Shown: positions 4,069 to 35,257 of the stretch, piece after piece
How the letters are laid out: each line of letters begins with the position of its first letter
How positions within the stretch are numbered: position 1 is the stretch's first letter
Program-made: the position numbers and the translations under genes
Source of the DNA: a virus
Reading direction: 5' to 3' (one strand)
Length of the DNA stretch: 64,000 nt
IMG/VR virus record: IMGVR_UViG_3300008267_000023
Span: 1 to 64,000 of that record
The notes under the pieces: model-generated
What the model saw: only the letters and a program-made list of their open reading frames with translations
Database searches by the model: none
What the model was told of the DNA's origin: nothing

Positions 4069-4325
4069 TGAAAGTACTTCATCAAGACTGCGCTCCTGAA
4101 GTAGCAAGTGATAGAAGTCTACCTTATAATACTTACTTGGTTACATATCAAGATGAGGGAACAACAAAGTATGATGTTGTTCAATGTAATAAAAAAGTAG
4201 AAATTTTTGATTATTATTGGGATAGGTATAGAGAGGATTTTATTTCCTTTAAGCAGTCTGAAGGAAGAACCAACCCAAAACTCTGGAATATCCAACCAAA
4301 AAGTTCTGATAAAAAGAAAAAATGA
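4068..4325 (+). CDS. Hypothetical protein
   Basis: TAATG coupling; GRTNPKLW motif. Confidence 0.7.
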   Translation: MKVLHQDCAPEVASDRSLPYNTYLVTYQDEGTTKYDVVQCNKKVEIFDYYWDRYREDFISFKQSEGRTNPKLWNIQPKSSDKKKK

Positions 4326-4510
4326 AAGAAAAATTTGAAGACGTTCTTAGGAAAGAACTCAAAAAAGAATTTGAACATCAAATGAATGTTCAAGTAAATC
4401 AATCAGAATTAAAAAATATTATAAAAGAATATAAAAAAATTAAGAAGTTCCAGAAGACACCACTTTATGAAGTGATGCAAATGGATAAGAAAAGTAAAAA
4501 AGATTCTTAA
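4322..4510 (+). CDS. Hypothetical basic protein
   Basis: ATGA overlap with upstream gene. Confidence 0.6.
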   Translation: MKEKFEDVLRKELKKEFEHQMNVQVNQSELKNIIKEYKKIKKFQKTPLYEVMQMDKKSKKDS

Positions 4511-4513
4511 TTT

Positions 4514-4529
4514 TGTATCAGATTTTACA
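4514..4529. promoter_or_regulatory. NtcA-binding box
   Basis: TGTA-TCAGATTT-TACA is a perfect GTA-N8-TAC, intergenic, just upstream of the promoter. Confidence 0.7.
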
Positions 4530-4536
4530 AAAGTGC

Positions 4537-4566
4537 TTGACTATATAGAGTGAATAGGAGTAGAGT
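4537..4566 (+). promoter_or_regulatory. sigma70-like promoter
   Basis: TTGACT (4537) - 18 nt - TAGAGT (4561). Confidence 0.55.
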
Positions 4567-4576
4567 AATCTCCTAA

Positions 4577-4874
4577 CGTTCATCCTATGACTAAAGCACT
4601 TTTGCTTTTAGCATGGGTTCCACTTCTTTCTTTTACTACGCCACAACTCATAGCAACTGAACATCCAGTTACAATAAGTTGCGACGCAGCGTGGGAACTA
4701 ATGGACATCGTTAAAAACGACGATGTAGTTATTCAAAAAGTAGAAGACCGATTGCTACTAGAACTCCGAAAGGATGTTGTAAACAAGTGCTAAAAACTGA
4801 ATAGGACGGAAGTAAGCCGACTCGGAACGGATCGTTCATCGGGAAACCGACGCAAAAGCCGACTGAAGGAACGC
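4577..4874 (+). ncRNA. Glutamine riboswitch-like RNA (glnA / Downstream-peptide family), double aptamer with an ORF in the P2 loop
   Basis: Two CGTTCA and two GGAACG strands; CGGAAGTA and GAAGGAACGC E-loop signature; stems TCCTAT/ATAGGA and TCGG-GAAA-CCGA; upstream of a YRG peptide. Confidence 0.8.
4587..4793 (+). CDS. Small putatively exported two-Cys protein nested inside the riboswitch P2 loop
   Basis: 68 aa with signal-peptide-like N-terminus; ISC..A..L...V...LELxK..C pattern shared with 50700..50870. Confidence 0.7.
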   Translation: MTKALLLLAWVPLLSFTTPQLIATEHPVTISCDAAWELMDIVKNDDVVIQKVEDRLLLELRKDVVNKC

Positions 4875-4904
4875 TCTTTAGCCTCAAAATTAAGGAGAAC
4901 CCTA

Positions 4905-5063
4905 ATGTCTAAAGCCGTTTATAGAGGGTGTTCATACGACACCGATAATGCAAAAAAAGAGTATGAAACTTGGTATCTCAAAAGTCATGCTCCTGCTCAC
5001 CCACAAAATACATATCGTGGAGTAGCATATCGTCCATGCAAAAACATGGAGGTTCAAAAGTGA
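4905..5063 (+). CDS. YRG-motif peptide (DUF4278 / IF17 N-terminal-like), 52 aa
   Basis: AAGGAG RBS at 4892; MSKAVYRGCSYD...TYRGVAYRP; not in ORF track. Confidence 0.8.
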   Translation: MSKAVYRGCSYDTDNAKKEYETWYLKSHAPAHPQNTYRGVAYRPCKNMEVQK

Positions 5064-5158
5064 AAAAACTTAACTTCTTACAACTCATTAAAGATAAAAA
5101 ACAAAAAGAAGAACGTCGTCATCAAGCTCAATTGGCTCATCTAGTTGGAGCAAAGTGA
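5060..5158 (+). CDS. 32-aa basic peptide MKKLNFLQLIKDKKQKEERRHQAQLAHLVGAK
   Basis: GGAGG RBS at 5048; GTG start overlapping upstream TGA. Confidence 0.65.
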   Translation: MKKLNFLQLIKDKKQKEERRHQAQLAHLVGAK

Positions 5159-5247
5159 TGGTAGGACAAATTATCATAACTTCAACTGCTGCAATTGCTT
5201 TAACTACAATGTTATTGTCAGTATATATTCAGTGGATTTATAAATGA
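5158..5247 (+). CDS. 29-aa single-TM peptide
   Basis: TGATG coupling, GGAG RBS, hydrophobic core. Confidence 0.55.
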   Translation: MVGQIIITSTAAIALTTMLLSVYIQWIYK

Positions 5248-5253
5248 TTTTCT

Positions 5254-5281
5254 AAGGAGGGGTTGATCCCCTCCTTTTTTT
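5254..5281 (+). terminator. Intrinsic terminator closing the peptide operon
   Basis: AAGGAGGGG-TTGAT-CCCCTCCTT followed by a T run. Confidence 0.85.
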
Positions 5282-5312
5282 GTGGTAAAATCTTATTGGA
5301 GAAAATTATTTT

Positions 5313-5486
5313 ATGGATAAAGATAAACTTAAATTAATTATCCGTAACCTTGAACTATTAGTTGATTCTTTAAAGGCAGAAGTATATTCTGATACTCAAA
5401 GTTATTTGAATACGGACAAAATTAAACAAACACTTCAATACGATTACGACGAAATTTTTGAGGATGACGATGGTTATGCAGACTAA
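5313..5486 (+). CDS. Conserved hypothetical protein (57 aa, MDKDKLKLIIRNLELLVDSLKAEVYSD...)
   Basis: Read manually; GGAG upstream; acidic tail. Confidence 0.7.
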   Translation: MDKDKLKLIIRNLELLVDSLKAEVYSDTQSYLNTDKIKQTLQYDYDEIFEDDDGYAD

Positions 5487-6198
5487 ACCTATTGTTAAAT
5501 TGATTTCTGTTACACAAGGTGCAGGAGAACTAGCAGGTAAATCTGCACAGGAAGTGATTACTTATACTGCCCGTGTGAGTAATCCAAATAATCAACTTAA
5601 GTTTGATACTGCTGCAGGACTCCTTCGGTATTGTATTAAGCAGAATCACTGGTCTATCTTTGAACAAGCAGATATGACCCTTGAGATTAATACAACTAGA
5701 GGACTGGCAGCTCAAGTGCTTCGTCATAGGTCCTTCGTATTTCAAGAATTTTCACAACGGTATGCAGACACAAAACTTCTGACAGAACTTCCTGAAGTTC
5801 CTGAACTTCGTAAGCAAGATGAGAAGAATCGTCAGAACTCAACTAATGATCTGGATGAGCATACCCGAGAAAAGTTTGAGGGAATGATTGAACAACACTT
5901 TGAAGAGGCACAACGTCTCTATGACAAAATGCTTGAGAAGGGTGTGGCAAAGGAATGTGCAAGGTTTGTATTGCCTTTGGCAACACCGACAAGAATTTAC
6001 ATGAAGGGATCTGTAAGGTCGTGGATCCATTACATCGATTTACGTTCTGCACACGGCACCCAGAAAGAGCATATGGACATTGCAGAAGCAGCACGATGCG
6101 TCTTTATCTGCCAATTCCCTGACATTGCTCAGGCACTTGGATGGGAACCAGAGAATTGCCCAGAATGTTCTGATGCTCCCTCTGTCTGTATAGAATAA
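5476..6198 (+). CDS. thyX: Flavin-dependent thymidylate synthase
   Basis: HWSIFE, RHRSFVFQEFSQRY ThyX motif, AKECARFVLP. Confidence 0.95.
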   Translation: MQTKPIVKLISVTQGAGELAGKSAQEVITYTARVSNPNNQLKFDTAAGLLRYCIKQNHWSIFEQADMTLEINTTRGLAAQVLRHRSFVFQEFSQRYADTKLLTELPEVPELRKQDEKNRQNSTNDLDEHTREKFEGMIEQHFEEAQRLYDKMLEKGVAKECARFVLPLATPTRIYMKGSVRSWIHYIDLRSAHGTQKEHMDIAEAARCVFICQFPDIAQALGWEPENCPECSDAPSVCIE

Positions 6199-6224: not shown

Positions 6225-6473
6225 ATGGCAACATACCCTGTTATTCATAAAGATACTGGTGAACAAAAAGAAGTGACCATGAGTGTTCACGAATGGGACC
6301 AGTGGAAAAAAGAAAACCCAGATTGGGATAGAGATTGGTCTGACCCATCAACTTGCCCTGGAAGTGGTGAAGTTGGTGAATGGAAAGACAAACTTGCAAA
6401 ATCAAAACCAGGATGGAACGAAGTTCTACAAAGAGCTTCTAAGATGCCTGGTGCTAGCGTAGGAAAGATTTAA
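6225..6473 (+). CDS. Conserved hypothetical protein upstream of phoH
   Basis: 82-aa ORF coupled (TAATG) to phoH. Confidence 0.75.
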   Translation: MATYPVIHKDTGEQKEVTMSVHEWDQWKKENPDWDRDWSDPSTCPGSGEVGEWKDKLAKSKPGWNEVLQRASKMPGASVGKI

Positions 6474-7234
6474 TGTCAAGAAAAAGAAGGAATTCTGACC
6501 AACCAATCGGAGTTGGTATGACTGCAAAGCAAATGAGAAGAAAGAGACCTCTTAATTCCGATTTGCTAATTGATATTGAACCATTAACAGATAATCAAAA
6601 AAAATTATTTGAATCATATTCAAAAGGAAGACATCTAGTTGCTTACGGTGCTGCTGGAACAGGTAAGACATTTATTACTCTATACAATGCTTTAAAGGAA
6701 GTTCTAAATGAGATTACTCCATACGAGCAAATTTATATTGTTCGTTCACTAGTTGCAACTCGTGAGATTGGATTCCTTCCAGGGGACCATGAAGATAAGT
6801 CTAGTCTTTATCAGATTCCATACAAGAATATGGTAAAGTACATGTTCCAACTTCCAACTGAAACAGATTTTGAAATGCTTTATGGAAACTTGAAGCAACA
6901 AGAAACTATTAAGTTCTGGAGTACATCATTTGTTCGTGGAACAACTTTAGATAATTCAATTATTATTGTTGATGAATTTCAAAATATGAATTTTCATGAG
7001 TTGGATTCTATCATTACTCGTGTTGGTGAAGATTCCAAGATTATGTTCTGCGGAGACGCATCCCAATCAGATTTAACGAAGTCAAATGAGAGAAATGGAA
7101 TCAGTGATTTTATGGATATCTTGAGGAAAATGCCATCTTTTGATATAATTGAGTTTGGTATTGATGATATTGTCCGTTCTGGACTTGTTAAAGAATACTT
7201 AATTGCAAAAATGGAATCTGGATTGAATGTTTGA
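6473..7234 (+). CDS. phoH: PhoH-family ATPase
   Basis: GAAGTGKT, IGFLPGD, RGTTLD, IIVDEFQN, GDASQSDL. Confidence 0.95.
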   Translation: MSRKRRNSDQPIGVGMTAKQMRRKRPLNSDLLIDIEPLTDNQKKLFESYSKGRHLVAYGAAGTGKTFITLYNALKEVLNEITPYEQIYIVRSLVATREIGFLPGDHEDKSSLYQIPYKNMVKYMFQLPTETDFEMLYGNLKQQETIKFWSTSFVRGTTLDNSIIIVDEFQNMNFHELDSIITRVGEDSKIMFCGDASQSDLTKSNERNGISDFMDILRKMPSFDIIEFGIDDIVRSGLVKEYLIAKMESGLNV

Positions 7235-34967: not shown

Positions 34968-34993
34968 ATAAATACATTGTAGTGGGATGTATA

Positions 34994-35257
34994 ATGAAAT
35001 ACAAAATCTCGTCAAACTATTGCTACCATGATGGTATAATAGTTGATATGTATTTTATAAATGGAATCCCATTTACGTTTGATGACATTCCAACATTAAT
35101 GCAAGAAGATCCGTATATTCAAGTAGAAGCAGAAGGAAATCTTGATTATACTTCAGAAGATTTGTATATGTGGTCAAACTATCTAATTATGGAAGAATGT
35201 CATCCTCTCATGTTTGAATTGGATTTAGAAAATCCAGAGGAATTACCTTGTGATTGA
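34994..35257 (+). CDS. Conserved hypothetical protein
   Basis: MYFINGIPFTFDD, YL..EECHP. Confidence 0.7.
   Translation: MKYKISSNYCYHDGIIVDMYFINGIPFTFDDIPTLMQEDPYIQVEAEGNLDYTSEDLYMWSNYLIMEECHPLMFELDLENPEELPCD

Follow-up and report, generated by a model that had tools for sequence, protein, structure and literature searches.

A conserved cassette in T4-like cyanophages

We examined a 64-kb window, meaning the whole stretch of DNA that was analysed (positions 1 to 64,000 of IMG/VR record IMGVR_UViG_3300008267_000023), which belongs to an 83-kb viral contig from a freshwater T4-like cyanomyovirus (thyX at 5458–6198; phoH at 6473–7234). Its closest isolates are the Synechococcus phages S-SRM01 and DSL-LC03. 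The region of interest, 4514–5281, holds an NtcA-type box, a sigma-70-type promoter, a leader with glutamine aptamers, a set of small open reading frames (ORFs) and a terminator, all on the plus strand apart from the box. An earlier note on this DNA had listed the box, the promoter, the aptamers, three ORFs and the terminator, and every one of these is present. Its interpretation stands in part: the two regulatory inputs, the analogy to cyanobacterial gifB and the link to DUF4278 hold, the proposed role in nitrogen assimilation is unsupported, and the account was incomplete on the RNA fold, a fourth gene and the direction of NtcA control.

Relatives were gathered with a pattern across the junction of the two aptamer copies, which yielded at least 120 viral contigs, and the 112 loci with a whole leader formed the comparison set. 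All elements listed at 4514–5281 are conserved in more than 110 related cyanophage contigs, and the cassette is present in P-SSM2, P-SSM4 and S-PM2 as well as in lake phages. The genes downstream of the leader are a mosaic, drawn from several subtypes of a peptide with two YRG motifs and four subtypes of one basic-helix family. Near-identical DNA was found in lake and freshwater metagenomes from more than 10 studies. Metatranscriptome contigs from four lake RNA libraries (two studies) also match 4300–5167 without differences, one piece covering 4350–4839 and another 4851–5167, while 5170–5320 is uncovered and uninformative. These contigs attest presence in RNA libraries only, as starts, ends, strand and DNA carry-over cannot be judged from them, and they are weak evidence that the cassette is expressed.

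The leader contains two interlocked glnA-type aptamer copies

The Rfam model of the glnA-type glutamine RNA (RF01739) matches positions 4831–4877 with 34.6 bits (E = 1.6e-5), the gathering score being 35, and a scan of the whole window at the Rfam gathering thresholds returned no match. A second aptamer copy is split, with its 5′ strand (CGUUCAUCCU) at 4577–4586 and its 3′ part (AUAGGACGGAAGUAAGCCGACUCGGAACG) at 4801–4829. In relatives, copy 1 of locus L008, which is contiguous, scores 31.3 bits, and copy 2 scores 33–34 bits. RF01704 (Downstream-peptide, Glutamine-II) has no match in the whole 83-kb contig at E values up to 10.

The 5′ strands of the outer aptamer (4577–4588) comprise the P1 strand CGUUC (4577–4581), A4582 and the P1a strand UCCUAU (4583–4588). 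The sensor resumes at 4801–4822 with the 3′ strand of P1a (AUAGGA, 4801–4806), CGGAAGUA (4807–4814), the base x1 (4815), GCCGAC (4816–4821) and the base y1 (U4822). An inner part (4825–4856) is made up of the hairpins GAACG-GAU-CGUUC (4825–4837) and UCGG-GAAA-CCGA (4839–4850) and of CGCAAA (4851–4856), and the 3′ part of the sensor (4857–4873) consists of x2 (A4857), a second GCCGAC (4858–4863), y2 (4864), GAAG (4865–4868) and the 3′ strand of P1, GAACG (4869–4873).

The base y1, which follows the GCCGAC of copy 1, covaries with x2, which precedes the GCCGAC of copy 2: the pair is U-A in 71 loci, G-C in 40 and U-G in one, with zero mismatches. A side-by-side tandem model, with P2 pairing within each copy, was rejected, being mismatched in 40 of the 112 loci, namely those with G/C. 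Among 36 sequences in which both hairpins are short, 99.2% of cells are paired under the nested model vs 72% for the P2 pairs of the tandem model, and the inter-copy P2-extension pair reads GC in 20 sequences and UA in the other 16. Three of three P1a pairs have changes on both sides, and RNAalifold independently pairs the 5′-most CGUUC with the 3′-most GAACG and folds GAACG-GAU-CGUUC as an inner hairpin. The junction strands ACGGAAGUA and GAAGGAACG are invariant and are joined only in the nested (outer) fold, whose pairing brings ACGGAAGUA of copy 1 together with GAAGGAACG of copy 2 in a single outer aptamer. The leader thus combines covariation in P1a and in the P2 extension with invariant junction strands, as a type 1 structure does. 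This covariation shows the two predicted aptamer copies to be interlocked, not side by side, and the inner domain is a permuted copy with degenerate junctions. Glutamine aptamers of the glnA type are present, as had been claimed, but they are not a simple pair.

In the minimum free energy (MFE) fold, an expression platform follows at 4874–4897, where CUCUUUAG (4874–4881) acts as an anti-Shine–Dalgarno (anti-SD) strand and pairs with UUAAGGAG (4890–4897), the Shine–Dalgarno (SD) sequence of ORF1. This helix is 97% paired in 36 relatives, with changes that are one-sided and pair-preserving only. The leader is predicted to sense glutamine and to control translation; the glutamine riboswitch of gifB is an ON switch (PMC6212724).

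Both hairpins are bimodal in length. The distance from the 5′ CGUUCA to CGGAAGUA is either 10–28 or 215–225 nt, and the second hairpin measures 25–57 or 154–163 nt, in steps of three. Short (S) and long (L) forms combine as SS in 53 loci, SL in 33, LL in 15 and LS in 11, the window being LS. Rfam scans see only an uninterrupted copy and find no match in LL loci; standard scans of this kind overlook glutamine sensors whose hairpin carries a gene.

A gene is nested in the sensor

The long inserts in the hairpins are conserved ORFs. That of the window encodes 68 amino acids (4587–4793; MTKALLLLAWVPLLS...SCDAAWELMD...EDRLLLELRKDVVNKC) and lies inside the P1a hairpin, on the same transcript, between the promoter and the rest of the aptamers. 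It had been omitted from the operon as first described, in which the three coupled ORFs were correctly recognised. Its ATG completes the 5′ strand of P1a, so that the A and U of the start codon are within the stem, and its stop codon lies 7 nt ahead of the 3′ strand. The motif CGTTCATCCT followed by ATG occurs in 26 of 26 loci with a long insert, and the encoded proteins in these loci have 66–69 residues, 29 of them invariant, with a ratio of nonsynonymous to synonymous substitutions (dN/dS, Nei–Gojobori throughout) of 0.33. The family has 255 protein clusters, none of them named. AlphaFold2 models of ORF1 and the nested ORF were of low confidence (predicted local distance difference test scores (pLDDT) of 67 and 60; predicted template modelling score (pTM) of about 0.3), and in the ESM Atlas the nested ORF came closest to one ‘hypothetical protein’ cluster of purely viral members (score 0.85), which is probably its own and carries no family name.

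P-SSM4 has nested ORFs in both hairpins, which are annotated as hypothetical, the counterpart of the window's being PSSM4_169.2, and P-SSM2 has one, which is unannotated in GenBank. The marine ORFs are divergent (MLEVALLSS...EDRNCKPYIIS and MIPILIATSITCADIN...NCKDAKAD in P-SSM4, L206 704–1117; MDILLATILTCEEAKG...GCLWDAEVD in P-SSM2, L205 932–1090), and have in common with the nested ORF of the window a hydrophobic N-terminus and two cysteines. The ORFs in the two hairpin positions may be paralogues of one family. Three database proteins of 124–143 residues (P0249, P0256 and P0255) seem to join a nested ORF (...DAKAD or ...DAQVD), the translated riboswitch core and a DUF4278 peptide in-frame, and appear to be gene-calling read-throughs.

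Three coupled micro-proteins follow the leader

ORF1 (4905–5063; SD AAGGAG) encodes a DUF4278-like peptide of 52 residues with YRG motifs at residues 6–8 and 37–39. It matches PF14105 with 22.9 bits (E = 1.1e-4), just under the gathering score of 25.3, and 32 of 34 relatives match at E < 0.01 (best E = 7.8e-5). Alignment of the ORF1 family to bona fide cyanobacterial DUF4278 proteins with hhalign gave a probability of 95.6% over 50 columns (E = 1.1e-8). Within the family Y6-R7-G8 is invariant and Y37-R38-G39 is at least 90% conserved. From these comparisons ORF1 is a DUF4278 homologue, in agreement with the link drawn previously. It belongs to phrog_5049, has a dN/dS of 0.15 and is represented by 1328 protein clusters; a PDB sequence search with the ORF1 profile gave a chance match only (E = 0.05).

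ORF2 (5060–5158; SD GGAGG at 5048–5052), which overlaps the end of ORF1 in GTGA, encodes a basic amphipathic-helix micro-protein of 32 residues (VKKLNFLQLIKDKKQKEERRHQAQLAHLVGAK). It belongs to one family of four subtypes with a dN/dS of 0.11, in which natural fusions to a YRG N-terminus occur (S-CREM1, L063 and L076). ORF3 (5158–5247; SD GGAG at 5147–5150), joined to ORF2 by a TGATG overlap, encodes 29 residues that form a single hydrophobic, transmembrane-like helix ending in YIQWIYK. This peptide usually follows the ORF2 subtype of the window, and is conserved after ORF2 of the KKLN type (17 unique sequences; dN/dS 0.26). With a dN/dS of 0.11–0.33 in every ORF class, all four ORFs are under purifying selection and are taken to be real genes. 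The intrinsic terminator at 5254–5281 is as described before, with a 9-bp stem (5254–5276) containing 6 GC pairs and a T-run, and S-SRM01 carries the same element. Seven relatives (L031, L047, L066, L068, L074, L092 and L106) have an extra ORF of 50–56 residues after the transmembrane peptide (e.g. MDYHYHWDDMDRDNR.PACYQLTYRGCKYWSCYRIHLREWFE...), with a YRG motif and four cysteines, which the window lacks.

Searches of Pfam, NCBIfam and PHROGs returned nothing informative for ORF2, ORF3 or the nested ORF. The IF7-like domain (NF052599, GS_inact_IF7A), in whose alignment arginines R8, R21 and R28 are conserved, had no NCBIfam match in ORF1–3, the nested ORF or 35 relatives of ORF2; P0261, a true IF17-like protein, scores 92 bits. 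A ‘split IF17’, with ORF2 as its IF7-like half, was rejected (probability 0.07% for the ORF2 family against 29 IF7A sequences in hhalign). A PirA-like ORF2 was likewise rejected, as there was no NF050139 match and hhalign aligned only the YRG part of the fused members. On these comparisons, a role of ORF2 in the control of glutamine synthetase (GS) is unsupported. In IF17, the inactivation of GS does not require the DUF4278 part (PMC6316151), and the phage peptides carry no IF7-like effector domain, so that the earlier note's proposal that they modulate nitrogen assimilation is still a guess.

Two cyanobacterial proteins (P0251 and P0257) consist of DUF4278 repeats with a C-terminal PirA domain (NF050139, 54–56 bits), and P0261 of DUF4278 repeats with its IF7A domain at the C-terminus. 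N-terminally extended PirA-like proteins are mentioned in the PirA paper (PMC8092223). Small nitrogen regulators thus seem to have DUF4278 in common as an N-terminal module. Because DUF4278 occupies this position in IF17 and in the PirA fusions, the fused or coupled basic helix is a candidate effector, and the arrangement suggests that it could act on a host nitrogen-metabolism protein.

The NtcA box and the promoter

The box is a perfect TGTA-N8-TACA at 4514–4529, as first reported (TGTA 4514–4517; TACA 4526–4529), with its core GTA-N8-TAC at 4515–4528 and its centre at 4521.5. The core is kept in 108 of the 112 loci, at most 110 nt upstream of the aptamer and at offsets from the aptamer's CGUUCA that are fixed by class (−38 to −45, −58 to −63 and −69 to −71), and the N8 spacer occurs in 47 versions among 93 unique upstream regions. 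It is this conservation at fixed offsets that makes the box meaningful; a single TGTA-N8-TACA carries no statistical weight in 64 kb, and the window contains 5 against an expectation of 1.43. Three of them (22949, 33345 and 39156) lie inside long ORFs, look like chance and were rejected as regulatory boxes. The sole other window site outside long genes, 34988–35003, is in a short intergenic stretch just before an 87-residue ORF and a 2571-residue ORF, and the box at 4514–4529 is the only one in a clean intergenic promoter context. With a GTA-N8-TAC that stands at a promoter and is conserved in relatives, the locus has the features of an NtcA promoter, and the box is predicted to be bound by host NtcA. 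Box and riboswitch, the two inputs that had been proposed, are real and conserved features.

A sigma-70-type promoter was identified at 4537–4566 (−35 TTGACT at 4537–4542, 18-nt spacer, −10 TAGAGT at 4561–4566), with a predicted start at about 4573–4576, the first bases of the aptamer. A second candidate overlaps it at 4524–4551 (TTTACA at 4524–4529, 16 nt, TAGAGT at 4546–4551), so the promoter noted before is present in two possible forms. The window belongs to a long-leader class, in which the equivalent promoter matches 9–11 of 12 consensus positions in 64 of 68 unique relatives. Here the −35 begins 7–9 nt past TAC in 56 of 68, and the −10, which is TATAAT in 52 of 68, ends 6–9 nt ahead of the A of ACGUUCA. 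With the start placed at this A, these spacings put the box centre at about −50 to −54. In short-leader relatives, GTA-N8-TAC is followed by 11–13 nt, a −10 or late-promoter-like hexamer, 4–7 nt and ACGUUCA, with the centre at about −31.5, and the promoters are weak (6–8 of 12 matches, without a −35 consensus). The hexamer is TAAATA or TATAAATA in many of them (e.g. L082, L084, L095, L100, L111 and L114). It resembles a T4-type late promoter, and the cassette may be late in some phages and early in others.

Canonical NtcA-activated promoters have TAC, 22 nt and TAN3T, with the box centred at −41.5, and activator-dependent promoters normally have no −35 consensus. NtcA is active at high 2-oxoglutarate, which signals nitrogen limitation. 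In the window, TAC lies 8 nt from the consensus −35 TTGACT and 17 nt from the TAGAGT of the second candidate promoter, and class II activator geometry (centre −41.5, about 22 nt before TAN3T, no −35 consensus) was found neither here nor in any class of relatives. NtcA-repressed promoters have sites at −30.5 (gifA) and −7.5 (gifB) (PMC6316151) and at −33.5 and −48.5 (pirA; PMC8092223), and the IF17-like gene of MED4 has an NtcA site over its start (PMC6212724). The geometry of the phage box resembles that of gifA and pirA and not an activating position. Given this geometry and these precedents, it is more likely that NtcA represses the cassette than that it activates it, although this is unproven. 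Together with a glutamine ON switch, repression would make both inputs favour expression in the nitrogen-replete state; activation would work against the riboswitch.

Immediately 5′ of the aptamer, the leader can form a hairpin, UAGGAG-UAGAGUAAU-CUCCUA (4555–4575), with the −10 hexamer in its loop (TAGAGT; TATAAT in relatives). A hairpin of at least 4 bp is formed at this position in 59 of 59 unique long leaders (L005–L124 equivalents), with 35 distinct 5′ arms and a mean MFE of −6.6 vs −1.8 kcal/mol for shuffles. The stem thus covaries around a loop that keeps its promoter-like sequence, a pattern that points to two overlapping promoters, the upstream one of which would yield transcripts with a 5′ stem-loop. 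The CUCCU arm (4570–4574) was considered as an anti-SD strand, as it complements the SD in the window, but it is not a conserved platform, because relatives have GACC, CCUCU or CCCCU instead.

Comparison with known systems

Several components have been described before: cyanophage glnA RNAs (PMC9964418, Rfam), NtcA sites of cyanomyoviruses (PMC3037559), and both the joint control of gifB by NtcA and a glutamine riboswitch and the location of DUF4278 genes behind glutamine aptamers (PMC6212724). In Synechocystis, gifB, which encodes IF17, combines an NtcA-repressed promoter with a type 1 glutamine riboswitch (Klahn et al. 2018, PMC6212724, with reference to Garcia-Dominguez et al. 2000). The gifB analogy is correct in that the gene is NtcA-controlled with a glutamine ON riboswitch, and that DUF4278 genes follow glutamine aptamers (PMC6212724, PMC6316151). 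Like gifB, the phage cassette has GTA-N8-TAC at the promoter, an RF01739 aptamer in the leader and a downstream protein that starts with a DUF4278 YRG domain. Unlike gifB, its product is without the IF7-like C-terminal domain that inactivates GS, its leader has two interlocked copies and houses a translated ORF within one hairpin, there are two additional coupled micro-protein genes downstream, and the box is placed upstream of or over the −35 rather than at −7.5.

The Glutamine-II (RF01704) leaders of picocyanobacteria (MED4 Yfr6), organisms in the phage's host group, also place a short DUF4278-only peptide after a glutamine aptamer (PMC6212724, PMC2864571), with a predicted NtcA site at the promoter. 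The phage, however, uses the glnA (type 1) motif, and it has the nested ORF and the coupled basic and transmembrane peptides, which the picocyanobacterial loci as described do not. The pirA gene of Synechocystis (Bolay et al. 2021, PMC8092223) is similar in encoding a small nitrogen-regulatory protein and in the location of its NtcA sites, near the phage box positions, and PirA also occurs in cyanobacteria fused behind DUF4278. It differs in that pirA has no riboswitch and the phage peptides have no PirA sequence similarity.

The same RNA family occurs in other T4-like phages, being annotated as glnA RNA in the cyanophage S-CREM1 (PMC9964418), and glutamine riboswitches are reported from other marine myophages such as Melnitz (PMC9004378). 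The locus of S-CREM1 (L002), directly related to that of the window, has short hairpins and a peptide in which YRG and basic helix are fused. In term searches of these papers the RNA figures as a plain cis-regulatory match, and no mention was found of the NtcA box, DUF4278, the interlocked fold, nested ORFs or coupled peptides. No paper on the phage operon, the coupled micro-proteins, the interlocked fold or the hairpin-nested genes was found in the searchable literature, and such absence is no proof of novelty.

Proposed mechanism and alternative explanations

With modest confidence, we propose that a conserved, mosaic cassette of T4-like cyanophages gates four micro-proteins on host nitrogen status through two host-derived sensors. 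Host RNA polymerase would start at the near-consensus sigma-70 promoter, at the sensor RNA or about 20 nt before it. When 2-oxoglutarate is high, host NtcA would bind GTA-N8-TAC, adjoining or overlapping the −35, and most likely lower transcription as at gifA, gifB and pirA, a step that we infer from geometry and precedent. The leader would act as a glnA-type glutamine riboswitch in which the 5′-most CGUUC pairs with the 3′-most GAACG, the two GCCGAC segments are paired and the inner domain is permuted. Without glutamine, CUCUUUAG would pair with the SD of ORF1; with glutamine, ORF1 would be translated, by analogy with the gifB ON switch, and ORF2 and ORF3 would follow via their overlapping stop and start codons. 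As its start lies in the P1a stem, the nested ORF should be accessible to ribosomes in the open state of the sensor alone, a state that its translation may in turn maintain, making its output reciprocal to that of ORF1–3 or delaying the latter. The predicted products are the DUF4278 peptide, the basic helix (fused to the DUF4278 N-terminus in some phages), the membrane peptide and the two-cysteine protein of the nested ORF.

A bolder extension, which we offer tentatively and regard as rather doubtful, is that the two-layer sensor works as a reciprocal toggle. Glutamine would bury the nested start and open ORF1–3, while at low glutamine ribosomes would keep the sensor open and ORF1–3 shut, and DUF4278 would deliver the basic helix, as a novel effector specific to the phage, to a host nitrogen regulator such as GS, PII or PipX. 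The phage would then switch between two micro-protein sets by host nitrogen status.

Cyanophages account for a large part of picocyanobacterial mortality, and nitrogen is often limiting for both. Picocyanobacteria, to our knowledge, have neither IF7 nor IF17. The cassette would read both host nitrogen signals, 2-oxoglutarate via NtcA and glutamine via the RNA, and offers an entry to the role of short DUF4278 peptides in picocyanobacteria, to whether phages adjust nitrogen assimilation in the host or use nitrogen status to schedule their own programme, and to a riboswitch that houses, and perhaps counter-regulates, a translated gene.

Several observations weigh against the proposed mechanism. 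Both aptamer copies score just below the Rfam gathering score and each is off-consensus, with CG for GAAG in one and CGCAAA for CGGAAGUA in the other. ORF2, ORF3 and the nested ORF are without similarity to any protein of known function. The RNA contigs cross the promoter from upstream, possibly through read-through transcription or DNA carry-over. The P-SSM2 cassette has no canonical box, all box positions are relative to a predicted start, and the box centre shifts between loci (about −31, −50, −54 and −62) by distances that are not whole helical turns; the position near −62 would suit class-I-type activation. Sullivan et al. 2010 interpreted cyanophage NtcA sites as activating (PMC3037559).

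The last two points bear on an alternative that we think unlikely, in which infection or nitrogen stress increases 2-oxoglutarate, NtcA activates the cassette and the riboswitch delays translation until glutamine rises. Production of ORF1–3 would then be confined to a pulse, following a nitrogen upshift or an uncoupling of glutamine from 2-oxoglutarate by infection, and the nested ORF would be made during starvation. The interpretation of many cyanophage NtcA sites as promoters (PMC3037559) and the short-leader promoters, which in their weakness and want of a −35 consensus are like activator-dependent ones, agree with it, as do the 12 loci centred near −62 (offsets −69 to −71) and the upstream gifA site of Anabaena at −77.5, which is thought to be activating (PMC6316151). 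However, the 22-nt spacing with a centre at −41.5 is absent from every class (11–13 nt in the short leaders, 7–9 nt to the −35 in the long ones), at steady state the two inputs would work against one another, and the host homologues of the design (gifB, the MED4 IF17-like gene and pirA) are all NtcA-repressed.

We give still less credence to explanations that remove one of the two sensors from the proposed mechanism. It is improbable that the palindrome is not NtcA's but a promoter-upstream element, the site of another regulator or a recombination scar, leaving the riboswitch alone to regulate a constitutive early operon. The near-consensus window promoter needs no factor, chance would account for one TGTA-N8-TACA per 64 kb, and the P-SSM2 cassette, which has no canonical box, is in line with this idea; against it, the retention of GTA and TAC around so variable a spacer is the signature expected of an NtcA dimer, and the offsets to the promoter are fixed within each class. 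The least probable alternative, in our view highly unlikely, treats the RNA as a degenerate riboswitch relic that serves as a scaffold, stability element or recombination hotspot hosting small genes, with four constitutively translated ORFs. The sub-threshold scores (34.6 bits; 31–34 bits in relatives), the non-consensus junction strand in each copy and the tolerance of inserts of about 155 and about 220 nt in either hairpin would all fit a relic. Yet ACGGAAGUA and GAAGGAACG are invariant and united in one outer aptamer by the nested fold, P1a and the inter-copy pair covary, and the boundaries of the nested ORFs are locked to the stems in all loci, which points to selection on the fold.

Neighbouring genes

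In the window (5313–6198), S-SRM01 (L001), P-SSM2 (L205) and S-PM2 (L207), the cassette is closely followed by a small ORF with an acidic tail (phrog_878) and by a gene for thymidylate synthase (thyX or td). Several cyanophage glnA RNA loci adjoin a thymidylate synthase gene, and in Melnitz, a phage of OM43, a glutamine riboswitch likewise lies close to thyX (PMC9004378). The gene upstream of the cassette in P-SSM2 encodes a phytanoyl-CoA dioxygenase, a member of a 2-oxoglutarate-dependent family.

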